Assembly (NCBI GenBank): GCA_036002305.1
Contig: DASYTL010000020.1
Location: forward strand, 35,852 to 99,851
DNA length: 64,000 bases
Reading direction: 5' to 3'
Source of the DNA: Candidatus Limnocylindria bacterium
GTDB taxonomy: Bacteria; Chloroflexota; Limnocylindria; P2-11E
The notes under the pieces were generated by a model. That model was given only the letters and a program-made list of their open reading frames with translations, had not been told where the DNA came from and searched no databases. The position numbers and the translations under genes are program-made. This document shows positions 3,878 to 55,482 of the stretch, one piece after another. Every line of letters starts with the position of its first letter. The stretch's first letter is position 1.

Positions 3878-4073
3878 AAGGCTCCCCTGCTCCGCGCGCC
3901 CTTTCTCGTCCCTACCCACGCGCGCGGTAAGGGGCATCGTCGGCGGGTCCGGCCGTCCGGCCTAGTCACAGGCCCGGTGCGCGCTCGTACCGGAAAGGTC
4001 CTAGTACCGCGGGGCCGGGAACGCGTACAGTTTCCCCAAATAGCACGGACGTGCCCGCGCACGTGGAGGACAA

Positions 4074-32500: not shown

Positions 32501-34201
32501 CTATTTCTTGAACCACCACTGCTCGATGTTGTAGATCGTGCTCACCGAGGTGGGCGCGAAGTTCTGGATGTTCTTCTGGCCGAAGATGAGGTTGTTCCCC
32601 GAGTAGAGCCAGATCACCGGGACGTCTTCGTTCAGCGCCTTGTCGACGTCGTGCGCCAGCTTGTTGCGTGTCCCCTCGTTGCAGTCGGGCCCGCTGTGGA
32701 TTTGATCGAGCATCTGGTCGACCTGAGCGTTGCGGTAGCGCCAGCGGTTGAACTCATTCGGTGCGATGTGCCGCGAGTGCCAGAGGCTCTCCTGATCGGG
32801 GTCCGGGCCCAAGCCGGTGAATCCGCTGATCCACCCGTCGACGTCCTTCCCGCAGCAGCGGATCCTTTCGAGAAGGGTGTTGAACGACATGAGCTGCGCG
32901 TCGATGGATATGCCGATCTGCTTGTACTGCTCCTGCGCCAGCTGGAGGATCGTCTCGCGGACCGTATTGGGCTGATTCGTCTCGATGCGCATCTTCATTG
33001 GCGTGCCGTCCGTCCAGCGGTAGATGCCGTCAGAGCCCATCTTGGCCCCGGCCTGCTCGAGGAGCTGCTTCGCCTTCTGCACGTCGAACGGGTATTTGTT
33101 GAGATCGTCGTCCTTGTACGCAGCGTTGGCAGGCGGCTGTGCCGCGTAGACGAGCTTCCCGTGACCGAAGACGATCTTGTCGATGATCGCCTGTCGGTTG
33201 AGCCCGTACGTCAGGGCCTGGCGCACGAGCTTGTTCCCGAGCCAGGGTGCTTTGGTCGACTCCGCGTTCCAGGCGAGGTAGTTCCATCCGAAGTCGGCGA
33301 ACTCGAAGCCCTTCAGGTTTTCGACCTTGCTGAGCTCGTCCCAGTCCTTGGGCTCGACGCCCGCCCAGGACACCTCCCCGATCTGCAGCGCCGCCTTGAT
33401 CGCCGCCGCGTCCGAGTACACCTTGATGATGAACTCGTCGATGAGCGGCGCGCCGAGGTAGTAGTTCGGATTCTTGGTATAGGTGGCGCGGTCGCCGGGC
33501 TTGAAGTCCTTGAAGACCCACGGGCCCATCGACGCCGGGGGCGCCATGTTCAGCGGGTTGTCGTCGATGGTCTTGCTCGTGTCGGTCGTACGCGGATCGA
33601 AGTACTGCTTGAAGTGCGTGCTCGGCAGCATGTATCCAGCGCCGGCCCCGGCGAGGTCCTCGACCGCCGTGCACAGGGTCTTGCTGAAGGTGATGACGAT
33701 GGTCTTGCCGCCGTCCTTCACCTGTATGCCCTTGATCTCGTCGGTCTTGCCGTCCTTGTAGTCCTGCGCGCCGAGGACGTTCTGGAACACGTTCTGGCGA
33801 GTCGTGCGCTTGCTGCGCATGGTCGCTTCGGCGGTGTACTTGTAGTCCTCGCCGGTGAACGGCGTTCCGTCGCTCCACTTGAGCCCGTCGCGGAGCGTGT
33901 AGGTCAGGGTGAGCCCGTCCTTGCTTAGCTCGAACTTCTCCGCGAGGCGACCGGTCAGCTCGCCCGTCTTCTGATCGCGACGAAGGAGGTCCTGGTAGAC
34001 GGCCTCGATGTAGCGGTAAGAGGTCGTATCGGTAACCAGGATGGGGTTGAACGACTTCGGGTCGCCCGTGACGCCCCTGACCAGAGTCCCGCCGGGCACC
34101 GGCTTCTCGCCTGGCGACGCCTGGGGCGTCGTCGATGGTGTTTGAGTGCAGGCCGTCACGATCAGAAGCGCCGCCATGAGGTTGGTGATTAGTCGACGCA
34201 T
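32501..34201 (-). CDS. ABC transporter substrate-binding lipoprotein, family 5 (peptide/nickel)
   Basis: 566 aa. Lipobox LIVTAC. Typical SBP_bac_5 length and strings (TYTLRDGLKWSDGTPFTGEDYKYT). Confidence 0.9.
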   Translation of the reverse strand: MRRLITNLMAALLIVTACTQTPSTTPQASPGEKPVPGGTLVRGVTGDPKSFNPILVTDTTSYRYIEAVYQDLLRRDQKTGELTGRLAEKFELSKDGLTLTYTLRDGLKWSDGTPFTGEDYKYTAEATMRSKRTTRQNVFQNVLGAQDYKDGKTDEIKGIQVKDGGKTIVITFSKTLCTAVEDLAGAGAGYMLPSTHFKQYFDPRTTDTSKTIDDNPLNMAPPASMGPWVFKDFKPGDRATYTKNPNYYLGAPLIDEFIIKVYSDAAAIKAALQIGEVSWAGVEPKDWDELSKVENLKGFEFADFGWNYLAWNAESTKAPWLGNKLVRQALTYGLNRQAIIDKIVFGHGKLVYAAQPPANAAYKDDDLNKYPFDVQKAKQLLEQAGAKMGSDGIYRWTDGTPMKMRIETNQPNTVRETILQLAQEQYKQIGISIDAQLMSFNTLLERIRCCGKDVDGWISGFTGLGPDPDQESLWHSRHIAPNEFNRWRYRNAQVDQMLDQIHSGPDCNEGTRNKLAHDVDKALNEDVPVIWLYSGNNLIFGQKNIQNFAPTSVSTIYNIEQWWFKK

Positions 34202-35920: not shown

Positions 35921-36613
35921 TCACTCCAGTCCGCGGATGACCTTCGCGACCGCGCGCAGGTCCGCCACGAAGAGCTTCGTCTCTCGCTCGCGGGCCGCGT
36001 CGTCCGGCGCGCGGAGGATCGACGAGGGATGCACCGTCGCCATGAGGTGCGGCGCGAGCGGGGACGGAATGAGCTTGCCGCGCTCCTGGGTCACCTTGAA
36101 CTTCGGCGAGATGAGCGCCTGCGCGGCGGTCGCGCCGAGGCAGACGATAACTTGCGGCTTCAGGATGCCGATCTCCGCATCCAGCCAGAGCCGGCACGCC
36201 GCGATCTCGCTGCGGTTTGGCTTCTCGTGAAGGCGACGCTTCCCTGCCGCGCGCCACTTGAAGTGCTTCACCGCGTTCGTCAGGTAGACCGTCTCGCGGT
36301 CGATCCCCGCGGCTTCGAGCGCATCGTCCAGGATCCGGCCCGCCGGACCGACGAACGGACGTCCTTGGACGTCCTCTCTATCGCCGGGCTGCTCACCGAC
36401 GAACATGACCCTCGCCGCGCGCCGGCCCTCGCCGAAGACGGTCTGCGTCGCCTTCTTCCAGAGATCGCAAGCGCGGCAGTGGGCCGCGGCCTCGCGCCAC
36501 GCGGCCAGGCTCTTCGTCTCGGGGAGCTCGGGGTAGCGATGCCCCGGTTCGGGCTGCGCTTTCTCCACCGCGCACTTGACGGAGCAAGCCGCACGCCCGA
36601 TGGTCCGGCGCAT
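35921..36613 (-). CDS. UdgX-like family-4-type uracil-DNA glycosylase
   Basis: 3' two-thirds of track ORF 35921..36877. Fe-S Cys HCRACDLW; motif A VGEQPGDRED (36383-36397); NAVKHFKW...GKRRLH (KRRLH at 36227-36241); motif B HPSSILR. Start is ATG at 36613 or, better for length (215 aa) and to clear the divergent gene, GTG at 36568. Confidence 0.85.
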   Translation of the reverse strand: MRRTIGRAACSVKCAVEKAQPEPGHRYPELPETKSLAAWREAAAHCRACDLWKKATQTVFGEGRRAARVMFVGEQPGDREDVQGRPFVGPAGRILDDALEAAGIDRETVYLTNAVKHFKWRAAGKRRLHEKPNRSEIAACRLWLDAEIGILKPQVIVCLGATAAQALISPKFKVTQERGKLIPSPLAPHLMATVHPSSILRAPDDAARERETKLFVADLRAVAKVIRGLE

Positions 36614-37079
36614 GCGGGCCGCCTTGATCGCTATCGCGGTCGTCGCGCTCATCGGCATCGGGACGGTGGAAGGGCTCATCAGCGCGGGGCAGCTTTCGGA
36701 GCTGCCGGGCCGCGCGCGGCCCTCTTTGGGCGCCGGCGGGGTGGCATTGACGCTCCTAGGAGTCGCTCTCTCCGCGGCGGTGTACGGAGTCCTGGGCGCC
36801 GTCCTCGCGCGGAGCGAGGCCCGCCAGGCTGAGGCCATCACGTCGGGGGTGATCGCAGGCTGCTTCGCCGGGTTCATCGGCGGGGGGATCCGCGCGTTCC
36901 TGGTACGCGACTATCTCGGGAGCTTCTTCGCGGGCTCGCCAGCCCTGGTGACCTTGGTGACAGCGGCGCTGCTCGTCTTCGTCGTGCTCTCCGCGATGGT
37001 GAGCGTCGCCGCGGGTGGCGTGTTTACTTGGCTGGGCTTCCGTTTTGGTCGCCCGCGGTCGCAGCGACCTCCGCCCTGA
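36600..37079 (+). CDS. small integral membrane protein, unknown function
   Basis: Track ORF 36576..37079; ATG at 36600 or 36612. 4 predicted TM (AALIAIAVVALIGIG; GVALTLLGVALSAAVYGVLGAVL; VIAGCFAGFIGGGI; LVTLVTAALLVFVVLSAMVSVAAGGVF). High GC3. Confidence 0.65.
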   Translation: MVRRMRAALIAIAVVALIGIGTVEGLISAGQLSELPGRARPSLGAGGVALTLLGVALSAAVYGVLGAVLARSEARQAEAITSGVIAGCFAGFIGGGIRAFLVRDYLGSFFAGSPALVTLVTAALLVFVVLSAMVSVAAGGVFTWLGFRFGRPRSQRPPP

Positions 37080-38010
37080 TCCGCTCGACGACGCCCTCGC
37101 GGGAGAGCGCGACGAACGCCGAGACGATCTCGGGATCGAAACGCTCCCCCGCCCCGGACTCGATCGCTTCGAGACCCGCCTTCGCCGACCACGCCTCCTT
37201 GTACGGGCGCTTCGAGGTGAGCGCGTCGAACACATCCGCGACGGAAACGATCCGCGCGGCGAGCGAGATGTCCTCGCCCTTCTTCCCGTCGGGGTAGCCT
37301 CGGCCGTCCCAGCGCTCGTGGTGCTCCCGGGCGATGGCTCGCGCCGTCTCGAAGAACCGCGCCTCGCCGAGCATCCTCTCGCCGTCGATGCAGTGCTGCT
37401 TGATGACGCCGAATTGCTCGTCCGTCAGGTGGTGCTCGCTCTGGAGGATGTGGTCCGGCGTGTGGATCTTGCCGACGTCGTGCATGACGCTCGAGTACCC
37501 GAACTCCTCGACCAGGTCAGGTGTCAGGCCGACGCGATCCGCGATCGCTTCGACATACCCGCGCACGCGCCGGAGGTGCTCCCCGGTGGTGCGGTCCTTG
37601 ATCGTCGCGGCAAGCAGCAGGTGGCTGATGCCCTGCAGTCCGGTGCGCCGCAGCTCCTCGTTCGCGATCTGCTCCTGCTCGAGCGCTCGCTCGAGCTCCT
37701 GCCGGCGTTCGCGCTCGCTGTGGAGCATCGAGGCGAGGTCCTCCGCGTAGCGAGTCGCCTGCTTCTCCATGAGCGTCATCTGCTTGAGCTGGGATTCGAA
37801 TTCCTTGCGGACGCCCTGCTCGCGCTCGTAGACCTTGGCGAAGTCCAGGGCCATGCGCATCGCCTGGGCGTTGGCGAGGTCGGCGACGCGCACCGCCTGA
37901 TGCAGCAGCTGGCGGAAGACATCGGGGCCCTGCCCGTCCGTGGGGACGTCCGGCATGCGCGGCGAGACGTCCACAGTCTCGACGATCCCCTTGGTGTCTT
38001 CGGCGTCCAT
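37024..38010 (-). CDS. HD-GYP domain phosphodiesterase with N-terminal coiled coil (canonical metal ligands)
   Basis: 328 aa. TTGEHLRRV, VMHDVGKIHTPD, KQHCIDG, EHHERWDGRGYPDG, VADVFDALTSKRPYK. Confidence 0.9.
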   Translation of the reverse strand: MDAEDTKGIVETVDVSPRMPDVPTDGQGPDVFRQLLHQAVRVADLANAQAMRMALDFAKVYEREQGVRKEFESQLKQMTLMEKQATRYAEDLASMLHSERERRQELERALEQEQIANEELRRTGLQGISHLLLAATIKDRTTGEHLRRVRGYVEAIADRVGLTPDLVEEFGYSSVMHDVGKIHTPDHILQSEHHLTDEQFGVIKQHCIDGERMLGEARFFETARAIAREHHERWDGRGYPDGKKGEDISLAARIVSVADVFDALTSKRPYKEAWSAKAGLEAIESGAGERFDPEIVSAFVALSREGVVERIRAEVAATAGDQNGSPAK

Positions 38011-38014
38011 CGAC

Positions 38015-38386
38015 CTAGCTGTGCGCGAGAATCCCGCGGATCGTATCGATGAGCTCGAGCGGCCCGAATGGCTTCGTCAGGTACTGGGTCGCGCCCGCGG
38101 CGAAGCCGATCGCCCGGTCGCTGTCGCTCTCGTGCGCCGTGAGCATCACCACCGGGATGTCCTTCGTCGCCTCATCCGCCTTGATCTGCCGGCAGACGTC
38201 GAAGCCGTTCGGGCCGGGGCCCATATCGACGTCGAGGAGGACGAGATCGGGCTTTTCGGAGCGCACCAGGGAGAGCGCCTCGTTCCCGTTCTTCGCCTCG
38301 ACGATGGTCCAGCCCTGCGTGGACAGGGTGATGCGGACCATCTGCCGGATGGGCACCAGGTCGTCGGCCACGAGCAGCTTCGCCAT
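38015..38386 (-). CDS. single-domain response regulator (CheY-like)
   Basis: 123 aa. LLVADD, PDLVLLDVDM, VVMLTAH, YLTKPF. GGAGG lies 8 nt upstream. Confidence 0.9.
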   Translation of the reverse strand: MAKLLVADDLVPIRQMVRITLSTQGWTIVEAKNGNEALSLVRSEKPDLVLLDVDMGPGPNGFDVCRQIKADEATKDIPVVMLTAHESDSDRAIGFAAGATQYLTKPFGPLELIDTIRGILAHS

Positions 38387-38446
38387 TTTCTGCGCCTCCG
38401 ATGCTAGTGATGGGTCCTACCGGCCCCACCCCCGAACGGATGGAAG

Positions 38447-39154
38447 TTATGACCGTTCGGGGGCAGGACCGTTTCCCCCGCGCGGGGGAGAAACTCGATC
38501 GCGGGTCCAGGACTCGAGGGTGACCAGCCCGAGACGGGCGGCCTCGGCCACGGCCTCGAGGCGCGAGTGCGCCCCGAGCTTGCGGAGCACGGCCTGCACG
38601 TGGGCGCGGAGCGTGGCGGTCGAGATCCCGAGGGAGTCCGCCGCCGCGGTGGTGCTCGTCCCGCTCGCGAGGAGCCGGAGCACCTCGAGCTCCCGGGTCG
38701 TGAGCGGCTCGATGACCTTCCGCGCGGCGGCGCTCTCCAGGAGAAGGCGCTGCAGCTCGCTCGGTGCGAAGAGGATCTCCCCGGACGCGGCGGCACGGAC
38801 GCTCTCGACGACCTCGGTCAGGCCCCGGCCCTTCGTCATATGACCGACGGCACCCGAGCGGGCGACGTCGTTGAGCGTCGCCGCCGTCGGGTCGGCGGTC
38901 AGGACCAGCACGGCCGTGTCCGGGAGCGACCCGCGGACCGCGCGCGCGAGGTCGGCGCCTGTGCCGTCGGGCAGGTGATAGTCGGCGATCACCACGTCCG
39001 GACGGTGCTCGTTCAGCGCGGCCACCGCTGCCTTGACGTCGTGCACGACCGCCTGGACCTCTATCCCGTCCGCGGCGCGCAGCGCGACGCGCATGAGCTC
39101 CGCGAAGAGACGCTCGTCGTCGACGATCACGACCCGTATCGAGTTCTCGCCCAT
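38447..39154 (-). CDS. NarL/FixJ-type response regulator (REC plus LuxR HTH)
   Basis: 235 aa. VVIVDDE, PDVVIADYHLPDG, LVLTAD. HTH: LTTRELEVLRLLASGTSTTAAADSLGISTATLRAHVQAVLRKLG. Confidence 0.9.
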   Translation of the reverse strand: MGENSIRVVIVDDERLFAELMRVALRAADGIEVQAVVHDVKAAVAALNEHRPDVVIADYHLPDGTGADLARAVRGSLPDTAVLVLTADPTAATLNDVARSGAVGHMTKGRGLTEVVESVRAAASGEILFAPSELQRLLLESAAARKVIEPLTTRELEVLRLLASGTSTTAAADSLGISTATLRAHVQAVLRKLGAHSRLEAVAEAARLGLVTLESWTRDRVSPPRGGNGPAPERS

Positions 39155-39155
39155 G

Positions 39156-40469
39156 TCACTTCCCTCCGCTCGCTCGCACTTGCGTCGCGAGCGCCGCGAC
39201 GACCGCCGCGTCGAGCTCGCCGCGCCCGACGGCGCCCTGGAGAATGCGCACCGCTTCGGCCTCGGACACCGCGGGACGGTCCGCTCGATCCGCGAGCAGC
39301 GCCTCGAACCGGTCGGCCACCGTGACGATCCGGACCTCGAGCGGGATCTGCTCGGCCCGGAGGCCGTCGGGATAGCCCGTCCCGTCGAGCCGCTCGTGGT
39401 GGTGGCGGACGATCGGCAGGAGACCCGAGAGACGCTTGAATCCGGCGAGGATCTCCTCGCCCAGGACCGGATGCCGTTCGAGCAGGGCGCGCTCCTCGGG
39501 GGTCAGCTCGCCGTCCTTCGCGAGGAGCGACGCGGGGAGGCGCGCGTTGCCGACGTCGCGCAGCAGCGCGCCCAGCCTGATCGTCATGCGCGTCGACTCG
39601 TCGAGACCGAGCGCCCGCCCGATCTGCACCGCGCGCGCCGCGACGCGCTCGGTGTAACCCGCGGTGCCGGGCCGGTCGTGCGAGGCGATGGCCGCCGCGA
39701 GCACGATCAGGGACTCGGCCGCCGACTGCAGGTCGTGTTCGAGGCTACGCTCGCGCACCACGAGGTCGACGATCCGCGGGAGGTGGGCGTCGACCGCCAC
39801 GAGCTCGCCACCGTCGGAGCCGCCGCGTCCCGCCGTGACGCGGACGATGGCGACGTCCTCCGGGGCGTCGGCCGGGAGCGCGGCGTTCCCCTCGACGATG
39901 ATGACATCGGGGGTCTCGTTCGGCTCGGCGAGGTCAAACCTCGACGAGAGGACCTTCTCGACGAGCTCGCGCAGCGCGCCGTCCGCGATGGCGACGCGGG
40001 CCACCGGCCGCTCGCCGGCGGCGCGTTCGATCGGTCGCGTGAGACGTGGCACCCGCGGGTTCCGCGCCTGCCCGAGGACAGCGTCGATGCGCGCGAGCAG
40101 CTCCGCTGCCTGGAACGGCTTCGTGATGTAGTCGGCCGCCCCGCAGGAGAGCCCGCGGACCTTGTCGACGACCTCGCCGCGCGCCGACAGGAAGATCACC
40201 GGGATCGGCGCGGTCGCGCTGTTGCTCTTGATCCGCAGGCACACGTCATAGCCGTCGGTGTCGGGGAGCATCACGTCGAGCAGGACAAGGTCCGGGAGAA
40301 GCTCCTCCACGAGCTCGATCCCGCGCCGTCCGTCGTGCGCGACCGACACGACCATCCCGTTCGCCTGGAGCCGCCGCTGCAGCACGTCAGCCGACGCCTG
40401 GTCGTCCTCCACGACGACCACGCGCGTGGCCGGCGCATCCGAGCGCATGACCTCCTCTACGATCTTCAC
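39156..40469 (-). CDS. REC - pseudo-receiver - degenerate HD-GYP protein
   Basis: Track ORF 39156..40604, trimmed to the GTG at 40469 that overlaps the upstream stop (GTGA). REC: VVVVEDD, PDLVLLDVMLPDTDG, YITKPF. The middle REC-like segment has Glu at the acceptor position (PDVIIVEGN). The HD-GYP keeps HHERLDGTGYPDG but has TAGYTERV (Tyr for the first His) and LLRDVGN (RD for HD). Confidence 0.9.
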   Translation of the reverse strand: MKIVEEVMRSDAPATRVVVVEDDQASADVLQRRLQANGMVVSVAHDGRRGIELVEELLPDLVLLDVMLPDTDGYDVCLRIKSNSATAPIPVIFLSARGEVVDKVRGLSCGAADYITKPFQAAELLARIDAVLGQARNPRVPRLTRPIERAAGERPVARVAIADGALRELVEKVLSSRFDLAEPNETPDVIIVEGNAALPADAPEDVAIVRVTAGRGGSDGGELVAVDAHLPRIVDLVVRERSLEHDLQSAAESLIVLAAAIASHDRPGTAGYTERVAARAVQIGRALGLDESTRMTIRLGALLRDVGNARLPASLLAKDGELTPEERALLERHPVLGEEILAGFKRLSGLLPIVRHHHERLDGTGYPDGLRAEQIPLEVRIVTVADRFEALLADRADRPAVSEAEAVRILQGAVGRGELDAAVVAALATQVRASGGK

Positions 40470-41242
40470 TTCTTCTTCGCCTCGTTCGCCTCGCCGAGCA
40501 GCCAGCGCATCGCCACGATGAACTTCGAGGGGCGCTCCTCGCGCGTGTTCTCCCGCAGGTAGGCGTGGAGATCGACCGCCCAGTGCGGCAGCTCGCCGTA
40601 CCACTTCATCTCGACGATGACGTTGGGCTCCATCGAGAGCAGCGAGCCGAGGGGCGACGGTTCGTCGTTCTCATCCCGCGTCTCCCAGGGGAGCGCGAAG
40701 TACATGAGGTTGTGGTCCGCGGTGATGCGGATGGACGAGTCCAGCGAGTTGTACGCGAGGCGGTTGTACTGCGTGACGACGACGGGACGCGCTCCGGCCT
40801 TGAGCAGGCGAGCGGCGCGCTCCGCGAGGCCGTGGTGGAAGTCCGGCAACGCGGCCTCGCCGCGGAGGAACGACCGCGCCACGTCCATGGGCACGCCGAA
40901 GCGCTCCTTGAGCGAGGTGTCTTCCTCGTCGTCCTTGAGCTCGATCCACGCCGTGCCCGGGTTGAGCACGTCCTGCGGGCGGGTCCGGTGGTACTCGCGG
41001 ATGCGCAGCTGCATCGCCGAGCCCTTTTCGGCCGCGCGAAAGATCGACCAGTTGATGGTGTCGCAGTAGGTCGTCGTCGACCACTGGTATGGCCGGTCGT
41101 CTCGCGAAAGCGGCAGGTTGTTCGCCGTCGTGCGCATGACGAGCCGGGCGATGCTCTCGGTGACCTGGAAGCGGTGCTCATGCCTGCGCTCGGCATCGGC
41201 CTCGTGGGCCGGGACAACGGAGGTCGTCACTTTTTTGGCCAC
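40466..41242 (-). CDS. VTC-domain (polyphosphate polymerase / triphosphate-tunnel type) protein
   Basis: 258 aa. The pattern matches bacterial VTC-domain proteins along the whole length: HEHRFQV, TTYCDTINWSIFR, QLRIREY, AWIELKDDEEDTSLKERF, VVVTQYNRLAYNSLDSSIRITADHNLMYF, VIVEMKWYGELPHW, PSKFIVAM. The GTG start is 1 nt after the upstream stop. Confidence 0.8.
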   Translation of the reverse strand: MAKKVTTSVVPAHEADAERRHEHRFQVTESIARLVMRTTANNLPLSRDDRPYQWSTTTYCDTINWSIFRAAEKGSAMQLRIREYHRTRPQDVLNPGTAWIELKDDEEDTSLKERFGVPMDVARSFLRGEAALPDFHHGLAERAARLLKAGARPVVVTQYNRLAYNSLDSSIRITADHNLMYFALPWETRDENDEPSPLGSLLSMEPNVIVEMKWYGELPHWAVDLHAYLRENTREERPSKFIVAMRWLLGEANEAKKK

Positions 41243-41243
41243 G

Positions 41244-42740
41244 CTACTCGGTCGCGTCCGCGGCCACAGCGAGGAGGCCCCGCCGGGTCAGCGCGGCGCG
41301 CACGCCGTGCTCGACATCGGCCGGGATCGATCCATCGAGCGAGCGGAGGAGCTTGTCCGGGACGGTCCCGTGCTCGGTCGCGAGGATCTCGGCCGCACTG
41401 AATCTCAGCTCGGGTTCGACGGAGGTGAGATTCGCCAGGATGCGCTGGCCGAAGACCCGGGCGGTGTGCCACGCGTTGTAGACGTATACGCCGCAGAGCC
41501 CGGTCGCGAGCGCCAGCAGCATGCGGTTGTCGTGGGCCTGCAGCCCCGCGAGCAACGCCACCGCGGCCGCGAAGTTCCCGAACGCGTTCACGCCACCCGA
41601 GAGGAACGCGCGGGCGCGGGGGCGGATGACGGACTCGACCTGGCTGTAGACGAGCTCGGTCGCCGGCCGGTGGATCGCCGGGATGACGATGCGCTCGCCG
41701 AGCTGGATCGCGAGGCCCGCGAAGAATGCGATCCCCGCCGCCGTGAACGTCGCCGCGGCGGCGGCGAAGGTCCCGAGATACCAGAGCGGCAGTATGAAGA
41801 GCACGCGGGCGATTCCGATCGAGCGGAGAAGTCCGCCCGTGATCACGCTCTGGATGAAGATCGCGACGAGCGAGGAGCTGCCGTAGACCGAGGCGTACAG
41901 CTGGCTGAACACGTCCTCGCTCTGCTGGCTGCTGCCGGCGGCCTGGGCATCGAGGCCGACGAGGAAGAGGAAGTTGCCGAACTGCATCAGGAAGTACCAG
42001 AAGAAGACGCCGACACCGAACGTGCGCAGCATCTTGTCCGACGCGACGGTGCGATAGCCGTCGGCCGAGTCCTGGAGGCTGGCGCGCAGCCCCTTCGGCC
42101 GATCTTCACCCACGCGGCTGCCGTGACCTTCCGGCAGGCCGCGATACGCGACCAGCGCGACGAAGCACACCAGGAACCCCAGCGCCTGAGCGCCGATGAA
42201 GTTCTCGGCGTGAACGAACGGCGGGAGCCCGGTGCCCAGGGCGCTGCCGATGATCTTGCCGAGCAGCACCGAGCCGGCGAAGAAGGGGAAGAGACGCTTG
42301 GACTGCTCGGCGTCGTAGAGGTTCCCGGCGTACACCCAGAAGAGGATGTAGATCGTCTCCTTCACTCCGTGCGCGAACACGTAGGAGATCGGCTGCACCA
42401 GCCAGCCGCCCGCGAACTCTCCCTGGAGCCACACGCCGACTTGGATCACGACCGAGAGCAGCGTCACGCCGGCGACGTACCAGAGGAGCAACGTCCGGCG
42501 GCGGATCCGGTCGACGAAGAAGAAGATCATCGCCGACACGGCGAGCATCACGATCGGTGTCACGATGTACATCAGGGGGATGTAGTTCACGCCCCACCGC
42601 TTCACGAAGAGGGCATCCGCCCCGACCTTCCCGACCCAGTCGGCGGCGACCATGAGCGTGAGCAGCGCGTAGAGGAAGAGCCCGAGGCCCCACTCCCCGC
42701 GCCGTAGCGGGAGGGCGTGCGCGAAGATCCCTCGCAGCAC
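41244..42740 (-). CDS. 12-TM transporter-like protein (MFS / TLC ATP:ADP-antiporter-like) with HEAT-like C-terminal tail
   Basis: 498 aa. The N-terminus LRRGEWGLGLFLYALLTLMVAADWVGKVGADALFVKRWGVNYIPLMYIV resembles the start of TLC/AAA-family carriers. About 12 hydrophobic spans. Soluble tail: ELRFSAAEILATEHGTVPDKLLRSLDGSIPADVEHGVRAAL. The family assignment is tentative. Confidence 0.7.
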   Translation of the reverse strand: MLRGIFAHALPLRRGEWGLGLFLYALLTLMVAADWVGKVGADALFVKRWGVNYIPLMYIVTPIVMLAVSAMIFFFVDRIRRRTLLLWYVAGVTLLSVVIQVGVWLQGEFAGGWLVQPISYVFAHGVKETIYILFWVYAGNLYDAEQSKRLFPFFAGSVLLGKIIGSALGTGLPPFVHAENFIGAQALGFLVCFVALVAYRGLPEGHGSRVGEDRPKGLRASLQDSADGYRTVASDKMLRTFGVGVFFWYFLMQFGNFLFLVGLDAQAAGSSQQSEDVFSQLYASVYGSSSLVAIFIQSVITGGLLRSIGIARVLFILPLWYLGTFAAAAATFTAAGIAFFAGLAIQLGERIVIPAIHRPATELVYSQVESVIRPRARAFLSGGVNAFGNFAAAVALLAGLQAHDNRMLLALATGLCGVYVYNAWHTARVFGQRILANLTSVEPELRFSAAEILATEHGTVPDKLLRSLDGSIPADVEHGVRAALTRRGLLAVAADATE

Positions 42741-42745
42741 GGTCG

Positions 42746-44293
42746 CTAGGCTCCGGAAGCCCCGCGCTCGCCGGCGGGCAGCGTGAACTGCACGATCGCT
42801 CCAGTCTCGCCGGGGTTCACGACGCTGATGCTGCCGCCGTGGAGCTCCACGGCGAGCTTGCAGAACGCGAGCCCGAGCCCGGTCCCGCCGCGGCTGCGGC
42901 CGGCGCCCTGGTAGAAGCGGTCGAAGATGTGCGGCGCGTCGGCTGCCGCGATGCCGGGTCCGGTGTCGTGGACGCGCACGACGACCGAGCCCTCGAGGCT
43001 CCGGTCGCGCGCGCTATCGATGCGGACCTTGCCGCCGCTCGGCGTGTGCTTCACCGCGTTCGCGAGCAGGTTCGTGAGCACGCGCACGATGAGCCCGTCG
43101 TCGACGAACACGTTGACATCCTGCGGGAGCGCGCTTTCGAGACCGATACCTTTCGCGAGCGCCTCGGGCGCGACCTGCGCGATGCTGCGTTCCCCGAGCG
43201 CGGACAGCGCGATGACCTGAGGCATGGCCTCGAGCTTGCCCTCCTCCATTTTGTAGACGTCGAGGAGCGCGTTGACCATCCGCAGCAGCTCGCTGATATT
43301 CGACTCGGACAGCCGGAGGAGCTCGTCGAATTCCTGGCGGCCCGGCTCGAGCTGACCCATCCGCACGAGCTGCATGAACGCGACGACGCTGTTGGCGAGA
43401 TTGCGGATGTCGTGACCGAGCATGCCGATGAGCTCTTTCCGCGATTGCTCCATGCGCTGGAGGTCGGCGGCGGTCTTGCGCAGCTGGTCCTGCAGGCGCT
43501 TCGTGAAGATCGCGCTCCGCACCCGCGCCGCGAGCTCGATCGGCTCGAACGGTTTGGCGATGTAGTCGATGCCACCCACCTCGAAGCCTTTGCTCACGTC
43601 TTCCGACCGGTCCTTCGCGGTGACGAAGATCACCGGAATGTCGGCGGTCTCGGGCTGCGACTTGAGACGGCGGCAAGCCTGCAGGCCGTCCATGCCCGGC
43701 ATCATGACGTCGAGCAGGATCAGGTCGGGCTGCTCCGTGCGCGCGAGCGCGATCGCCCGTTCCCCGGAGCTCGCGACCTGCGTCTGGCAACCGATCGCCT
43801 CGAGGCGCCGAGCGAGGAGCTCCACGTTCGCGATCTCGTCGTCGACGATGAGCACCTTCCCGAGCGGGATCGGAACTGGCCCCCGGATGGTCGGTGCGCC
43901 GTCGCGGGAGGCAGGGACCTGCGCGGCGCCGCCAGGGAAGTAGCGGAGGAGGATGGCCCGAAGCTCAGCCGGAGCGAAGGGCTTGGACACGAAGTCGTCG
44001 CAGCCCGCTTCGATCGCCCGCGCCCGATCCGATGGGAGCGCGAGCGCCGACACGGCGATGATCGGGATGCTCGCCGCCCACGGCTCAGCGCGCAGCGATC
44101 GCGTGAGGCTCCAGCCGTCCATGCGCGGCAGGAGCAGGTCGACGAGGACCGCGTCGGGGCGCTCGACCCGGGCGAGATCAAGCCCGGCGACGCCGTCAGC
44201 GGCCACCAGGGCCTCGTGCCCGGAGGCGCGGATGATCCGCGACGCGACGTCCAGGTTGTTGGCGTCGTCCTCGACGACCAGAACCCGCGCCAC
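42746..44293 (-). CDS. hybrid REC-REC-HisKA-HATPase histidine kinase
   Basis: 515 aa. REC1: VLVVEDD...DAVLVDLLLPRMDG...FVSKPF. REC2: VLIVDDE...DLILLDVMMPGMDG...YIAKPF. H-box LIGMLGHDIRNLANS. N, G1 and G2 boxes: [27 protein letters not shown]. Confidence 0.9.
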   Translation of the reverse strand: MARVLVVEDDANNLDVASRIIRASGHEALVAADGVAGLDLARVERPDAVLVDLLLPRMDGWSLTRSLRAEPWAASIPIIAVSALALPSDRARAIEAGCDDFVSKPFAPAELRAILLRYFPGGAAQVPASRDGAPTIRGPVPIPLGKVLIVDDEIANVELLARRLEAIGCQTQVASSGERAIALARTEQPDLILLDVMMPGMDGLQACRRLKSQPETADIPVIFVTAKDRSEDVSKGFEVGGIDYIAKPFEPIELAARVRSAIFTKRLQDQLRKTAADLQRMEQSRKELIGMLGHDIRNLANSVVAFMQLVRMGQLEPGRQEFDELLRLSESNISELLRMVNALLDVYKMEEGKLEAMPQVIALSALGERSIAQVAPEALAKGIGLESALPQDVNVFVDDGLIVRVLTNLLANAVKHTPSGGKVRIDSARDRSLEGSVVVRVHDTGPGIAAADAPHIFDRFYQGAGRSRGGTGLGLAFCKLAVELHGGSISVVNPGETGAIVQFTLPAGERGASGA

Positions 44294-46617
44294 TAGTGGC
44301 TCCCGGTCCGGGTCAGCAGAGCGGCCTCGCTGCCGGCGCGCACCCGGATGGGCAGCGTGAAGTGGAAGGTGCTGCCCCGGCCGACTTCGCTGTCGACCCA
44401 GATGCGGCCGCCGTGCAGCGTGACCAGGCGCTTCGAGATCGCGAGGCCCAGGCCCGTGCCCCCGTACCTGCGGGTGGTCGAGCTGTCGGCCTGCCGGAAC
44501 TCGTCGAACACATAGGCCTGCGCCTCGGGGCTGATGCCGACGCCGGTGTCGGCGACCGATACGGTCACCCAGCCTTCCGCCGCGCTGGCGGAGACGGAGA
44601 CGGAGCCGCGCTCCGTGAACTTCACCGCGTTGGCGAGCATGTTCGCGAGGATCTGGCGGATCCGGGCACGGTCGGCCCAGACGTTCGGCAGCCCGGGCGG
44701 GATGAGCGAGCGCACCTCGAGGCCCTTCTCGTCGGCGTGCGGGCGTACGAGCTCGAGCGCCTCGTCGGTGACCTCGGTGATGTTGACCTCTTCGACGTTC
44801 AGCTCCATCTTGCCGGCTTCGATCTTGGCGAGATCGAGCAGCCCGTTGATCAGGCCGAGCAGGTTGTCCGCGGCCTGCGCCACCCGGAAGAGGTCCGTGG
44901 TCTGTTGCGCGGTGAGCTCGCCGTCGAGGCCGTCGAGCATCAGCTTCGTGTAGCCGATGATCGCGTTCATCGGCGTGCGGAGCTCGTGGCTCACGCTCGC
45001 CAGGAACTCGCTCTTCAGGCGGTTGGCGCGCTCGAGCTGCAGGTTGTTCACGCGCAGCTCGCCGACGAGATCGGCGTTCTCGTTCGCCACCGACACCAGA
45101 CGGGCAATGGTCCGCAGAGCGCGGGCCTGCGTGTCGGTGATGTCGCGCTGCTCGCGGAAGTACGCCGAGAGCAGGCCGATCGTGCGGCCCCGGGCTGAGA
45201 GCGGGACGTGCGCGACGAACCGCAGGTCGCCGGCGGACACGGCCGACAGCCGGATGCGGTCGGCGTCCGCCTCGGAGCGGACCAGCACGCGCATGGCGAG
45301 CGTGACGGCGGTCTCGGGATCGATGCCGACCGTCGCGGGCGCGTTAAGCCGTCCGCCGGATCCGGGCGGGGCGCCGGGCGGGTCCTCCCGGATGACGATC
45401 GCGCCGCCGTCGGCATTGAGGAGGGACACCATGCGGTCGAGGGAGCGCGCGAAGATGCGCTCTGCGTCGGTGACGCCGACGACGGCGTCGGCGACCTCGT
45501 TCACCGCGCGCACCTCGTCGAGGTACTCGCGCTGCGCACGTTCGCGTTCGTACAACGACGCGGCCATCGTGTCGAAGGCGCGTTCGAGCGTGCCGATCTC
45601 GTGCGGCGACACCTGCTGTACGCGCGCGGCGAGGTCGCCCGCCTCGATCCGCTGCGCCGCCGCCGCGAGGTTCTCGAGCGGCTGGGTGATGCTCCGCGCG
45701 GTGCGGTACGCGAGCAGCGTGACCACTCCCACGAGCCCGAGGCCGACGAGCAGCAGGATGCCGAGGAGAGTCCGTTGCGCCTGCTCGACCGGGTCGGTCG
45801 GGACGAGCACGGCGAGGATCCCGGGGTTCTGACGCTGGGACCGGATCACCCGGAAGATGCCGTAGTAGTTCTTGTTGTTCGCGGTCAGGTTCTCGATGAG
45901 GACGTCCCGCAGCTGCGCGTCGACCTGCTCCGTCGTGGGGAACATCGTGTTCGAGCCGAAGTCGACGGTCGAGGCGCGCACCTGGCCGTTCCAGATCAGC
46001 GCGAGGTCGGCGTCCGACCGCGTCTTGATCGCCTTGAGGAAGTCCGAGTTCAGGAGGTTGCCGACCTCCATGATGCCGATGTAATCGCCGTCGGCGTTCC
46101 GGATCACGAAGATCGCGCGGATGACGAGGCCGTCCGGCTCGTCGTAAAGCACCCACTGCTGCTGGGCCCGCGCCTTCGCGTACGTCACGAGCTCGGGCTC
46201 GAGCGTCTTGTTCCTGTTCTCCTGGGCGCCCGCGATGATCACGCCTTCCTTGTCGGCGATGTTCATCACGTTGACGCCGAGGCGTGACTTCATTGGGAGG
46301 AGGAAAGCCTGGATGCCCTCGATGTCGCGCTGCTCGGTGAGCTCGCGCGTCGTCGGCAGCCCGGCGGCCAGCGCAGCGGCTCTGGTCGCGACCAGGGCCT
46401 GGTCGTCGATCTCGTTCCTGGCGACGTCGGCGAGGATCGCCGACTCGTCCTCGAACTGGCTCAGGATGAGCTGGTAGGACTCGTAGATGGCGACGCCCGT
46501 CACGATGACGAGCGCGAGGACGCTCACCAGCACGTTGCGGCTGACGAGCGCCCTCAGCAGGCTCGGTGCGAAGAGCTTCTGCATGGCCCGAGCTGAGCCT
46601 TCCTCCTCGACGATCAC
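44293..46617 (-). CDS. sensor histidine kinase: TM - extracytoplasmic Cache/PDC-like domain - TM - HAMP - GAF-like - HisKA - HATPase
   Basis: 774 aa (GTG at 46617, or ATG at 46584 giving MQKLF). HAMP: [25 protein letters not shown]-box [18 protein letters not shown]. ATPase boxes: [26 protein letters not shown]. Its stop overlaps the next gene's start by 1 nt. Confidence 0.9.
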
Positions 46618-46632
46618 GCGGGGCCGGTGTGC

Positions 46633-47487
46633 TTAGAGTCCGGCGAGGATCTTCTGGCCTTCCGGTCCCTTCACGAAGTCCAGAAAAGCCCTGATCGCCG
46701 GCTTCAGCTTGGTCGGATCGGCGTCGTAGACGAAGTAGAGCGGCCGGCGAACCTTGTATGTGCCGCTGTTCAGGTTGTCGCGCGTCGCAGCGACGCCGTC
46801 GATGGTCGCGAAAGCGATCTGCGAGTTCCCGAAGGTGCTCGCGTTCATCGTGACCATGCCGATGGACTCCTTGAACGAGTTGATGGCCTTAACTGTCTCG
46901 TCGATCGTGGTCACCTCGATCGCTGACGGCGCGTACGTCGGCTTCTTGCCGTCGTAGAAATACGTCTCGAAAGCGCTCCGCGTCGACGAGCCCGGCTCGC
47001 GGATGAGCACGCGGATCTTGCCCGGCGTCCCGCCGACGTCCTTCCAGTCGGTGATCGTGCCGGTGAAGATCTTCGCGACCTGGTCCTTGGTCAGCGCCTT
47101 CACCGTGTTCTGCGCGCTCACGGCGACGGCCGTGCCGCTCGCGCCGATGGCGAGCGCCTCGACCTTCCCCTTCTCGGCCTCACGGAGGTCGCGGCTGATG
47201 TAGCCAAGATCGATCTCGCGGCTCACCGCGAGGCTCACGCCTGCGTCCGAGCCGATGTCCGCGAGGCCCTGCCAGGTGATCGTGGGGTGAAGCTTTTGGA
47301 ATCCGTCGGCGAGCGCCCTCACGTTGTCGAGCGCACCACCTCCACCGTTCACGATGTATTGTCCGCCGAGCGGGTCCGGAGTCTTCGCCGGCCCGACCGG
47401 CAGCTGACCTCCACAGCTCGCGGCGAATCCCGCGGCGGTGATCAGCAATGCGGCTGTCCGCAAAGAGCGCATTCGGGCCCTCCTCAT
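46633..47487 (-). CDS. PstS-like (PBP_like_2) phosphate-binding-protein homologue, lipoprotein
   Basis: 284 aa. An internal ATG at 47472 has AGGAGG 6 nt upstream and gives MRSLRTAALLITAAGFAASCGG (lipobox). GSDAGVSLAVSREIDLGYISR, GTITDWKDVGG, REPGSSTRSAFE, GTYKVRRPLYFVY. No pstCAB genes nearby. Confidence 0.85.
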   Translation of the reverse strand: MRRARMRSLRTAALLITAAGFAASCGGQLPVGPAKTPDPLGGQYIVNGGGGALDNVRALADGFQKLHPTITWQGLADIGSDAGVSLAVSREIDLGYISRDLREAEKGKVEALAIGASGTAVAVSAQNTVKALTKDQVAKIFTGTITDWKDVGGTPGKIRVLIREPGSSTRSAFETYFYDGKKPTYAPSAIEVTTIDETVKAINSFKESIGMVTMNASTFGNSQIAFATIDGVAATRDNLNSGTYKVRRPLYFVYDADPTKLKPAIRAFLDFVKGPEGQKILAGL

Positions 47488-47578
47488 GGGTCGAATCGAG
47501 ACATTAGTCTCTTGCCTTTGTATAGCGAGGTCTATCCCTCTATCGGCCGATTCCCGTTACACATCGGGATATGCGGGC

Positions 47579-47596
47579 CTAATGCAATTGCATTAG
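47579..47596. promoter_or_regulatory. 18-bp perfect AT-rich palindrome CTAATGCAATTGCATTAG in the divergent intergenic region; candidate operator
   Basis: Read directly; it is self-complementary. It lies 92 nt from the PstS-like start (47487) and 54 nt from the kinase start (47650). A direct repeat TCTATC-CC-TCTATC lies nearby at 47531-47544. Confidence 0.5.
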
Positions 47597-47649
47597 CCGA
47601 CACCGAAAGTGAACCAAAACCGTCCGCCCGCGCGCAATACTCTCGGCCG

Positions 47650-48729
47650 GTGAGCGAAAGAGACGCGACGCTGCGGCGGCAGATCCTGCCCGCGACCCGT
47701 CTTGCCGATGTCGACGTCCGCGGCCACCGCCAGGTCCTTCCGCTCACCCTGGCCGCCGCTGTAGGTATCGCCGCCGTCTGGCTCGTGGACATCTCCACCG
47801 GACCCGAATTCGGCTTCGCGATCTTCTATCTCATCCCGATCGGGCTGGCGAGCTGGTGGCTCGGCCGGGCCCCGGCGGTATTCATCGCTCTCCTCTCGAC
47901 CATCGCCTGGATCTGGGCGGATCTGATCGCCCGGGCGGCCGTGTCCTTCTCGGCAAGCCTCTGGAACGGTCTCACGCGCGCGGCCATCTTCATCCTGCTC
48001 GCCCTCCTCATCGACCAGGTGCGTCGCGAAAGGATCGCCCTCCGCAGCGTCGACGCCCACCGGGAGGAGTCGCTGGCGCTTATCGCGCACACCTTGCGGC
48101 GATCCGCTGGCGAGATCGAGTCCGCGATCCCGGATCTCACGAGGGCGCCCGCGCTCTCCGCCGCGGAGCGTAGCGCCATCGACGAGCTGCGCCGGCAGAA
48201 CCGCAACTTCAAACGGTTCGCCGATGACGTGCTCGAGGTCGGCCAGCTCGAAGCGGGCCGCTTCCGCCTGAATCGCGGGCGATTCGACCTCGCGGAATTC
48301 GTCGCGGTGCTCGCGAAGGAGACCGAACGGGATCGCCTGCAGCTCGTCGCGGAATCCGATCCGGTGTGGGTCGATGCCGATCCCGAGCGTCTGCGAACCG
48401 CGATCGAGCACCTCCTCAACAACGCGCTCCGATTCTCTCCTCCGGGCTCCGCGGTACACGTGACGGTCGGCCACCGCGGAGGTCGTGCCCGCATCACGGT
48501 GAAGGATCAGGGCGTCGGGCTCGCGAAGTCGCACCTCGGAGTGATCTTCAAGAGATACGGGCGGGTGGACACGGAGGCGACCAGGGACAAGATCGGCGTC
48601 GGCCTCGGCCTCTACGTGACGCGTCTCATCGTCGAAGCGCACGCCGGAACGGTCTCGGCGAGCAGCGTCGGACTTGGCCTCGGATCGACGTTCACCATCG
48701 AGCTTCCGCTGGCGTCGTCACAGCCCTGA
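47650..48729 (+). CDS. membrane histidine kinase (DUF4118-like TM sensor plus HisKA plus HATPase)
   Basis: Track ORF 47287..48729, trimmed to GTG at 47650. TM region FAIFYLIPIGLASWWLG (KdpD-type DUF4118-like). Unusual H-box LALIAHTLRRSAGEI. LLNNALRFSP, DQGVGL, GVGLGLYV. Confidence 0.85.
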   Translation: MSERDATLRRQILPATRLADVDVRGHRQVLPLTLAAAVGIAAVWLVDISTGPEFGFAIFYLIPIGLASWWLGRAPAVFIALLSTIAWIWADLIARAAVSFSASLWNGLTRAAIFILLALLIDQVRRERIALRSVDAHREESLALIAHTLRRSAGEIESAIPDLTRAPALSAAERSAIDELRRQNRNFKRFADDVLEVGQLEAGRFRLNRGRFDLAEFVAVLAKETERDRLQLVAESDPVWVDADPERLRTAIEHLLNNALRFSPPGSAVHVTVGHRGGRARITVKDQGVGLAKSHLGVIFKRYGRVDTEATRDKIGVGLGLYVTRLIVEAHAGTVSASSVGLGLGSTFTIELPLASSQP

Positions 48730-48751
48730 ACCGCGTCCGATAGCCACGCCG

Positions 48752-49120
48752 ATGGCGAAGATCCTCGTGGTCGAGGACGAGCCCAACAACCTCGAGCTGG
48801 CGCTCCGCATCGTGCGGCACGCCGGGCACGAGGCCATCGTGGCGACGAACGGGTTCGCGGCGCTCGAGCTCGCGCGGGAGCACCGCCCGGATCTGGTCCT
48901 GCTCGACCTTCAGCTCCCGAAGCTCGATGGTTGGACCGTGGTCCGCCTGCTCCGCAAGGAGCAGTGGGCCACCGGTGTGCCGATCATCGCTGTCTCCGCG
49001 TCGGCGAGCCCGGGCGACGAGTCGAAGGCGCTCGAAGCCGGGTGCACGGAGTTCCTCTCGAAGCCTTACTACCCGGCGACCATGCGCGAGCTCCTGCTCC
49101 GTTACCTGCCGGCTCCCTGA
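48752..49120 (+). CDS. single-domain response regulator
   Basis: Track ORF 48674..49120, trimmed to ATG at 48752. 122 aa. ILVVEDE, PDLVLLDLQLPKLDG, FLSKPY. Roughly 55-60 percent identical by hand alignment to REC1 of the hybrid kinase at 42746..44293. Confidence 0.9.
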   Translation: MAKILVVEDEPNNLELALRIVRHAGHEAIVATNGFAALELAREHRPDLVLLDLQLPKLDGWTVVRLLRKEQWATGVPIIAVSASASPGDESKALEAGCTEFLSKPYYPATMRELLLRYLPAP

Positions 49121-55304: not shown

Positions 55305-55482
55305 GCACGAACACGATAGGCCTCTCCCTCGGATCGCACCAGGGTCCCCGGTGTCGGACCAGCGTCGCGTGAGCCGCCCCGGACGATGGGGCAGGTCGGC
55401 GCGCCACGGACCGATCCCGCACCGCTACACGCGCCGCCCGCGGGCATACTCTTCGAGGAGCAGCGAAGGGGAGGGACACGTG

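Follow-up and report, generated by a model that had tools for sequence, protein, structure and literature searches.

The window analysed here is a stretch of 64,000 nucleotides from a Candidatus Limnocylindria bacterium (contig DASYTL010000020.1), and its main subject is a cluster of two-component signalling genes at 37024–49120 that also encodes a PstS-like binding protein, a VTC-domain protein and HD-GYP proteins. The G+C content of the window is about 69 %, and since DNA of this composition contains many spurious open reading frames (ORFs), genes were called by third-position G+C content (GC3). Together with the ORF list, the GC3 calls placed nine co-oriented genes, designated A to I, on the minus strand at 37024–47487, and a pair, J and K, divergent from them on the plus strand at 47650–49120. 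The junctions from A to I were, in order, a 15-nt gap, a 1-nt overlap, a 5-nt gap, a 1-nt gap, a 4-nt overlap, a 1-nt gap, a 60-nt gap (38387–38446) and a 4-nt gap. The VTC-domain protein (E) was 100 % identical to a database protein annotated as Candidatus Limnocylindria, from a metagenome-assembled genome (MAG); Limnocylindria is a class of the Chloroflexota.

An earlier account of this DNA, made from its letters alone (the sequence-only reading), had described the nine tightly packed genes and their junctions, and both were borne out by the GC3 calls, ORF list and coordinates. The flanking genes encode a uracil-DNA glycosylase family protein, a major facilitator superfamily (MFS) protein, oligopeptide ATP-binding cassette (ABC) proteins, an ornithine cyclodeaminase and a proline racemase; these are unrelated to the cluster, so the boundaries drawn in that reading were right. 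Its count of three kinases, six receivers, two HD-GYP domains and one helix-turn-helix (HTH) output was likewise confirmed, as was the divergent kinase and single receiver at 47650–49120 (HATPase_c and Response_reg). A hidden Markov model (HMM) check against Pfam, with results given below as bits against the curated cut-off, upheld all of its named domains except a pseudo-receiver, discussed under F.

Protein A (46633–47472, minus strand) was predicted from Pfam, NCBIfam and solved relatives to be a secreted binding protein of the PstS family and a probable lipoprotein. The gene was called at 46633–47487, and its true start is more likely the ATG at 47472, behind a GAGGAGG ribosome-binding site; the signal peptide ends in AASC. 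PBP_like_2 was matched at 100 bits against 27, and the scores for the NCBI PstS families were below their cut-offs (TIGR02136, 121.8 against 206.6 bits; TIGR00975, 25 against 205). The best solved relatives were the PstS proteins 4q8r (E 1e-26), 4gd5 and 1twy. Aligned with 1twy, 4h1x and 9l8j, A has G-G-G-G where the PstS anion loop is canonically G-S-T-S, and the other anion-binding motifs were largely kept (GSDAG for GSxAG, REPGSSTR for R-E-x-G-S-G-T-R). The GGGGA loop and residues R163, E164, T169 and R170 were conserved across 43 sequences. Because the solved relatives are PstS proteins, the score lies below the cut-off and the loop is altered in a conserved manner, A is predicted to be a PstS that has diverged and that probably retains oxyanion binding, though not necessarily of orthophosphate. 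ABC permease and ATPase genes (pstCAB) were absent from the cluster, from the window locus and from every relative examined. A second PstS-like gene was observed directly after the last HD-GYP gene in one clade (L004:14298–15158; also L043, L045 and L046), preceded in L004 and L043 by the palindrome CCCCCGATCGGGGG, and locus L075 carried three tandem copies of the PstS-like gene.

Protein B (44293–46617, minus strand) has the predicted architecture of a membrane sensor kinase, TM-dCache_3-TM-HAMP-GAF-HisKA-HATPase (TM, transmembrane helix). The dCache_3 domain was matched at 33 against 25.7 bits, HAMP, GAF, HisKA and HATPase_c were found in the same protein, and hydrophobic helices lie at residues 29–47 and 284–302. 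Protein C (42746–44293, minus strand) is predicted to be a soluble kinase with two receiver (REC) domains, REC-REC-HisKA-HATPase, and no other sensor domain; two Response_reg domains and HATPase_c were matched, and HisKA was just under the cut-off (25.3 against 26.9). Both of its receivers have the acceptor Asp, the Thr/Ser and the Lys, and its H-box reads GHDIRN. The divergent gene J (47650–48729, plus strand) encodes a putative membrane histidine kinase with three or four transmembrane helices, a DUF4118-like region and a matched HATPase_c; Pfam gave no HisKA match, and the H-box IAHTLRR was read by eye. K (48752–49120, plus strand) is a single receiver whose start was placed at 48752, the ORF opening at 48674 and the orthologues having 122 amino acids. 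The first receiver of C and the stand-alone K were 59 % identical, and K is taken from this comparison to be a paralogue of that receiver. All three kinases and all six receivers retain their catalytic or acceptor residues (H-box His and the N and G boxes; Asp, Thr/Ser and Lys).

Protein E (40466–41242, minus strand; 258 amino acids) is predicted by Pfam, AlphaFold2 and Foldseek to be a stand-alone cytoplasmic VTC or triphosphate-tunnel protein, with VTC at 72.1 bits against 23. The overlapping frame 40606–41217 was also considered as the VTC gene and was rejected, having no Pfam match and a composition unlike that of a protein. The AlphaFold2 model had a predicted local distance difference test score (pLDDT) of 87, and its best Foldseek match was yeast Vtc4 (3g3r, E 4.7e-13, TM-score 0.63), followed by Vtc3 and Vtc2 and then by other triphosphate-tunnel enzymes. 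A profile of the E family matched Vtc4 at E 3e-6; a phmmer search of the PDB with E alone returned marginal matches only. It was found from the Vtc4 and family alignments that the tunnel residues are conserved (RxR, ExK, K-x-R, Y-x-R, R-x-T-x-D, E-x-K and S-K), with equivalents of Vtc4 R264/R266, K281, K294, Y359/R361, R373, E426 and S457/K458. The register of the RxR motif is ambiguous, as HMMER pairs R86/R88 with R264/R266 and the family-wide motif LRIREY points to R80/R82. Strand 1 of E reads E22-H-R24-F; the Arg does not vary within the subfamily, and either Lys or Arg is found there in bacterial VTC proteins outside it. This Arg presumably stands at the place of Vtc4 K200, the register being assumed for a strand of Vtc4 that the alignments do not cover. 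E showed neither a hydrophobic helix nor a further Pfam domain, and no genes for an SPX or membrane channel subunit were found in the cluster. On this alignment the tunnel of E looks to keep every residue expected of an active enzyme.

Protein D (41244–42740, minus strand; 498 amino acids) is a putative 12-helix MFS-type transporter with a C-terminal soluble tail. Twelve helices were modelled, with an AlphaFold2 pLDDT of only 53. The window copy had no Pfam match at E<=10; among its orthologues, 20 of 23 had a weak MFS_1 match and 3 of 23 a weak TLC match (E 0.013), which together with the model agrees with the 12-transmembrane transporter-like protein described previously. The Joint Genome Institute (JGI) annotates orthologues of D as ‘ATP/ADP translocase’. 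The top Foldseek match of the model was AtNTT1 (9j3m, E 5.6e-5, TM-score 0.52 for a model of pLDDT 53), followed by generic MFS structures, and a profile of D searched against the PDB found nothing, NTT structures included. D is tentatively NTT-like, and this assignment is a lead only.

The remaining four genes encode the predicted outputs. F (39156–40469, minus strand, starting at the GTG at 40469 within the 4-nt overlap) comprises a receiver, a linker and a degenerate HD-GYP domain (RD-GYP), by matches to Response_reg and HD_5. The sequence-only reading had called this domain degenerate, and the alignment agreed in all 62 of 62 sequences: the HD dyad was RD in 58 and KD in 4, GK had become GN and D..D had become D..E, with HHE and GYP kept. 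The first His was Tyr in the window copy only, and the receiver residues were invariant across the same 62 sequences. F is probably a non-catalytic regulator, judging from these substitutions. A pseudo-receiver that the same reading had placed in the 130-residue linker was not borne out, as hhalign comparison with the receiver profiles of H and F gave a probability of about 1 %. G (38447–39154, minus strand) is a response regulator of the NarL/FixJ type by its Pfam matches (REC-GerE HTH), and H (38015–38386, minus strand) a single-domain CheY-like receiver. H was the most conserved protein of the operon, with 69–99 % identity across loci in which VTC had 50–88 %; its identity was 95–99 % within the close clade and mostly at least 80 % elsewhere. 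Such conservation would fit a hub contacting several partners.

Protein I (37024–38010, minus strand) has a coiled-coil N-terminus, a canonical HD-GYP domain and no receiver. HD_5 was matched at 126.2 bits against 27.2, and H145, H177-D178, H206, H230-H231-E232, D259 and G238-Y239-P240 were invariant in 53 orthologues. I is thus the only HD-GYP protein of the operon predicted to be catalytically intact, and a predicted phosphodiesterase of cyclic diguanosine monophosphate (c-di-GMP). A PAS-GGDEF-EAL gene lies elsewhere in the window (12939–14639, minus strand), so the organism has enzymes of c-di-GMP synthesis and breakdown outside the operon. A plus-strand ORF of 167 amino acids with coding-like GC3 (36576–37079) converges on the 3′ end of the HD-GYP gene with a 56-nt overlap, and small genes with no Pfam match were called at the equivalent place, 3′ of the HD-GYP gene, in L001 and L007.

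The conservation of the cluster was assessed by a gene-neighbourhood survey, one of the checks to which the sequence-only reading lent itself. Among genomes taken at one per species, 67 loci were found, nearly all titled Limnocylindria, Chloroflexota or Chloroflexi, and all eleven proteins of the window were mapped onto them. The order A-B-C-(D)-E-F-G-H-I was unbroken in all 67 loci and the complete set was present in 33, at VTC identities of 50–88 % and with flanking genes that vary between clades. A metagenome scan added 80 further loci, of which 78 had the identical order. Synteny across 67 genome loci and 78 metagenome loci far exceeds chance. D was located between C and E in 41 of the 56 loci holding both of these genes and was missing in the other 15, where E follows C directly. 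Of the 42 loci containing A, 21 had no J; in 17 J was divergent from A, and in 4 the two genes shared a strand. With the domain calls upheld and the order conserved, the earlier view of the cluster as one functional unit is supported. Operon contigs were also seen in MAGs labelled Udaeobacter (L012, VTC identity to the window 87 %), Bathyarchaeia (L020, 86 %), Dormiibacterota (L062, 53 %), Acidiferrales (L064, 50 %) and Saccharimonadales (L069, 58 %); these foreign labels are most likely binning errors.

A search of 1.8 billion representative proteins with the VTC profile indicated that E-type VTC proteins form a small separate subfamily, with 19 representatives at E<1e-30 and then a drop from 197 to 92 bits. 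Two proteins, P0247 and P0391 (64 % identical to each other), had the architecture cNMP_binding-VTC-HisKA-HATPase_c. Their fused VTC domains retain the tunnel residues and sit exactly at the position of a kinase input domain. A VTC domain between a cyclic-nucleotide-binding domain and HisKA (L075:10001–11992; also L076, L077 and L078) is an arrangement of which no earlier description was found. P0391 occurs on six contigs, one of them of 402 kb. Around it, in L075, are an adjacent cNMP-binding GGDEF protein, a B-like kinase whose dCache-HAMP half is 42 % identical, three homologues of A (47–51 %), a homologue of D (56 % identity), a receiver and a PAS-GGDEF-EAL protein.

Further versions contain no kinase. 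L151 is a four-gene operon of an A homologue (57 %), a B sensor half (50 %) fused to GGDEF-EAL, a D homologue (58 %) and VTC, and in L080/L081 and L082 VTC lies beside an A homologue (PBP_like_2) and a dCache_3-HAMP-GGDEF-EAL protein. Overall, the sensor half of B (residues 12–370) is 40–50 % identical to the sensor halves of the GGDEF-EAL proteins encoded beside homologues of A and VTC. One further contig carried MFS, VTC, FIST and PAS-GGDEF-EAL genes. Where present, A always adjoins the gene of the dCache sensor, including in versions lacking D. The generic bacterial VTC protein P0263, from outside the subfamily, had no two-component context, and the signalling association therefore appears specific to the E-type subfamily.

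Since A, the B sensor and E, often with D, recur with other outputs, they are predicted to be the evolutionarily stable unit, and comparison of these versions gives good support to the view that its output is always c-di-GMP turnover enzymes. The recurrence of VTC with A and the B sensor, and its fusion into histidine kinases, make the VTC domain part of the signalling machinery. The link of a PstS-like protein, VTC and c-di-GMP noted in the sequence-only reading is thus strengthened, as it recurs in five architectures that include the PstS-like/dCache-HAMP-GGDEF-EAL/MFS/VTC operon and the VTC-kinase fusions.

Two non-coding regions of the cluster were also examined. The G-H spacer (38387–38446, minus strand) contains a stem-loop directly after the stop codon of G, at about 38445–38424, and a hairpin was found in nearly all of 36 distinct spacers. 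The stems vary by clade and stay complementary (CUACAUCC/GGGUGUAG, CGAACCCCC/GGGGGUUCG, UCCCCC/GGGGGA). A TAGCAT box follows at 38406–38401; its TAnCAT form is invariant and lies 7–17 nt ahead of the start codon of H. Spacers folded individually had a modest mean z of -1.4, and single-sequence folds of the two spacers were uninformative. RNAalifold on the raw spacer alignment returned no consensus structure, because the hairpins are misaligned. The conserved hairpin and box suggest an internal terminator or attenuator followed by a promoter for H-I, with near-leaderless H-I transcripts possible in some clades. A scan for sigma-70 promoters and terminators gave nothing above shuffled expectation, and no T-rich terminator was found after I or G.

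The divergent intergenic region (47473–47649) carries the motif AGAGGGATAGAC at 47530–47541 on the minus strand. Its general form, CCCC-N4-6-(A)GAGGGAT(A/G), was found 55–96 nt upstream of A in all clades (the window and equivalent sites in 40 loci), and it occurs once in the window. The motif could be an operator of G, although L151, where a NarL gene is lacking, carries it too. An element resembling it, TCCCCC-TTA-GGGGGAT, was seen in the G-H spacer of L065 and L044. The intergenic region also contains a perfect 16-bp palindrome, TAATGCAATTGCATTA, at 47580–47595; orthologous loci are similar there and non-palindromic. No Rfam family was matched in the window or the intergenic region.

Taken together, these results are compatible with a single conserved signalling operon of soil Limnocylindria in which PstS-like, dCache and VTC inputs lead to c-di-GMP, a reading in which our confidence is evenly balanced. 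Its sensory core would be the secreted protein A, the dCache-HAMP membrane sensor B and the cytoplasmic protein E, with D as the usual companion. A would bind a phosphate-like oxyanion outside the cell and dock on the dCache domain of B, setting its kinase activity; the analogy is with kinases that depend on a binding protein. Receivers, those of C among them, would be phosphorylated by B and by J, the second membrane kinase, with J acting via K. E would bind or turn over a tri- or polyphosphate compound (polyphosphate, polyP; tripolyphosphate, PPPi; or ATP) in its basic tunnel and act on or with the sensor-less kinase C, a contact suggested by the VTC-kinase fusions and by adjacency, so that the internal phosphorus or energy status would be merged with the external signal. 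The phosphorelay would end on G (transcription), on H and on F, with its catalytically dead HD-GYP domain. Lacking a receiver, I would be switched through contact with F and/or H, in the way that HnoD controls HnoB, resulting in a change of c-di-GMP. The ligand, the phosphotransfer partners, the contact of F or H with I and the direction of the response are what we infer in this scheme.

The sequence-only reading had proposed a phosphate- or polyP-responsive relay controlling c-di-GMP. Functional unity and the c-di-GMP output are supported by comparative genomics, and phosphate or polyP as the signal is not established, given the score of A (121.8 against 206.6), its G-G-G-G loop and the absence of pstCAB nearby. 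Nor is a single transcript established, since the 60-nt gap, with its conserved hairpin and TAnCAT box, may hold an internal terminator and promoter.

Several points weigh against this interpretation of the operon. The altered anion loop and the PstS score below cut-off leave the ligand of A unproven. The complete tunnel means that a purely sensory role of E is not favoured by its sequence, and the minimal versions L151, L080 and L082 have no kinase, so E cannot serve solely as the input domain of a kinase; possibly it is an enzyme, and the pathway depends on what it makes or consumes. The NTT-like call for D is a lead from a low-confidence model and weak Pfam matches. H and I may be transcribed separately, as the hairpin and box between G and H would allow. 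HD-GYP enzymes can act on substrates other than c-di-GMP. Finally, all of the sequences are from MAGs or metagenomes.

A more specific form of the signalling-operon reading assigns the VTC or triphosphate-tunnel domain a role as a bacterial signalling domain, either a tri- or polyphosphate sensor or a regulated synthase gating a histidine kinase, coupled to a PstS-derived receptor, so that phosphorus read on both sides of the membrane sets c-di-GMP. This form is held tentatively and is less probable than the general reading. If true, prokaryotes would have, in this two-sided reading of phosphorus, a counterpart to the SPX-VTC phosphate signalling of eukaryotes. In an extreme form, E could conceivably make a polyP-type signal that D exports and that A and B sense outside the cell as a self-produced cue.

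As the tunnel of E looks catalytically complete, an enzymatic role (polymerase, hydrolase or, less likely, cyclase) is a serious rival. The best placed of these explanations, somewhat less probable again, is that E is a cytosolic polyP polymerase and hence an enzyme output: external phosphate would be sensed and stored as polyP made from ATP, D would supply or exchange nucleotide and phosphate, and c-di-GMP would change in parallel. The closest fold and profile match of E is the yeast polymerase Vtc4, whose RxR, ExK, K/R, Y-x-R, E-x-K and S-K tunnel residues are conserved in it, the top structural match of D is an exchanger of ATP for ADP and phosphate, and E is present in the kinase-free versions of the module. 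However, E lacks the membrane channel and SPX partners of the VTC complex, an Arg appears to replace Vtc4 K200 (if the register is right), and the literature search found no bacterial VTC-domain protein shown to make polyP. The fusion of VTC between cNMP-binding and HisKA domains places it at the position of an input domain, which is not that of a metabolic enzyme. With the fusions in view, E as a polyP polymerase, the function to which the sequence-only reading had pointed, is not established.

It is unlikely that E is instead a CYTH/TTM (triphosphate tunnel metalloenzyme) hydrolase of PPPi or polyP, or a cyclase, with VTC and HD-GYP forming the synthase and hydrolase of a messenger other than c-di-GMP. 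Such a pairing would account for the lack of a GGDEF gene in an operon with two HD-GYP domains, and for the position of VTC after a cyclic-nucleotide-binding domain in the fusions, next to a gene for a cNMP-binding-GGDEF protein; E22 also provides a Glu in strand 1, as in CYTH enzymes. However, a GGDEF-EAL gene is present elsewhere in the window, and in the variants the same VTC subfamily is accompanied by complete GGDEF-EAL proteins while HD-GYP is missing, so an HD-GYP partner is not needed. TTM triphosphatases and class IV adenylate cyclases do appear in the fold search with E, at lower rank; its fold and profile clearly fit Vtc4, Vtc3 and Vtc2 best, and not CyaB-type cyclases.

A similarly low probability is given to the explanation that A and D are uptake proteins of a nutrient-acquisition locus (organophosphate or nucleotide) with attached regulators, E processing the import. 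A is homologous to the solute-binding proteins of ABC phosphate importers, D is a transporter, and A is duplicated in the L004-type loci and present three times in L075. This explanation is countered by the lack of ABC permease and ATPase genes in the cluster, both here and in every relative examined, by the constant position of A beside the dCache sensor gene, even where D is lacking, and by the absence of D from 15 of 56 loci. That unrelated two-component genes have merely accumulated here by accident, sharing no function, is very improbable: such genes are abundant and often clustered, and the divergent J/K pair is not universal, but the order is identical in 67 genome loci at species level and in 78 metagenome contigs, whose flanks differ, and the core re-assorts as a unit with other outputs.

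Elsewhere in the window, a dCache_1-HAMP protein (2636–3937, minus strand) is followed by a 493-amino-acid protein with no Pfam match (1153–2634, minus strand), a pair that may be a two-gene split sensor or one frameshifted gene. Two very large secreted subtilases are encoded at 9032–12736 and 20417–23533 on the minus strand (Peptidase_S8 with PA, CARDB and fn3). An M1 aminopeptidase and an S51 peptidase are found as well, and so are two ABC systems for oligopeptides (SBP_bac_5 at 32501–34201 and 55351–57060). This set of peptidases and peptide transporters suggests a protein-degrading lifestyle.

A literature search covering bacterial VTC, DUF4956 and Limnocylindria with polyP or HD-GYP returned nothing relevant, and yielded neither a description of the operon nor a paper characterizing a bacterial VTC-domain protein. 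The earlier remark that no characterized system has this composition is in agreement with that search, which likewise found none. In a 2022 census of the sensory inputs of c-di-GMP networks, phosphate, PstS and polyphosphate are unmentioned, and only one family of the binding-protein clan is listed as studied in such networks (PMC8846402). The module described here ties a PstS-derived receptor, a dCache sensor and a polyP-polymerase-type domain to c-di-GMP enzymes, either directly (GGDEF-EAL) or via a three-kinase relay ending in HD-GYP proteins. If its ligand is a phosphorus compound, c-di-GMP signalling would gain its first input dedicated to phosphate or polyP, and a bacterial VTC domain its first assigned role. 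Limnocylindria are abundant, uncultured bacteria of soil and freshwater, and the operon may therefore bear on their response to phosphorus supply.

Among known systems, the Hno network of Shewanella oneidensis and Vibrio cholerae (Plate and Marletta 2012, summarized in PMC6335343) resembles the operon in having more than one kinase, several receivers and one transcription factor. In that network, the phosphodiesterase HnoB is inhibited by HnoD, in which a receiver is joined to a degenerate HD-GYP domain, and phosphorylation of HnoD ends the inhibition (PMC6335343). Both systems thus place a receiver with a degenerate, inactive HD-GYP domain (HnoD there, F here) beside an active c-di-GMP phosphodiesterase, with regulation by contact in the Hno network and proposed contact between F and I here. 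The input differs, being PstS-like, dCache and VTC rather than H-NOX and nitric oxide, and Pfam found no HNOB domain among the proteins of the cluster. Here the predicted active phosphodiesterase is an HD-GYP protein without a receiver and not a REC-EAL protein, and the operon has an additional layer in its REC-REC kinase, as well as a transporter and one CheY-like protein on its own.

With the yeast VTC complex (3g3r, 8i6v), E shares the Pfam family, the fold and the conserved basic tunnel residues; it differs in being soluble, in lacking SPX and channel subunits, in its location within a two-component operon and in having relatives fused to histidine kinases. The PstSCAB-PhoU-PhoR system has a homologue of A in PstS, but the operon has no Pst transporter or PhoU and the anion loop of A is altered. 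NTT/TLC transporters (AtNTT1, 9j3m; Chlamydia NTT1, 9j3o) provide the best structural match of D and the JGI name of its orthologues, whereas D has no significant sequence match to TLC or to solved NTTs and the organism is free-living.

F shares its REC-HD-GYP architecture with RpfG of the RpfC/RpfG system of Xanthomonas, and, like the YN-GYP protein PA2572 of Pseudomonas aeruginosa, has a degenerate HD and a retained GYP. It differs from both in its RD- or KD-GYP, in its 130-residue linker and in the separate canonical HD-GYP companion. The adjacency of A and B is similar to that in LuxP-LuxQ and TorT-TorS, where a periplasmic binding protein is encoded beside a membrane kinase with a periplasmic sensor. 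In Pseudomonas fluorescens, PhoB-RapA links phosphate status to c-di-GMP degradation transcriptionally, via the ordinary Pho regulon, whereas the operon encodes a sensor module of its own alongside its c-di-GMP enzymes. For each of the VTC complex, Pst and Hno systems, at least one defining feature is lacking in the operon, which was therefore filed under none of them. Its parts are from known families (two-component, HD-GYP, PstS-like, MFS and VTC), and what is new is the input module, especially VTC in bacterial signalling.

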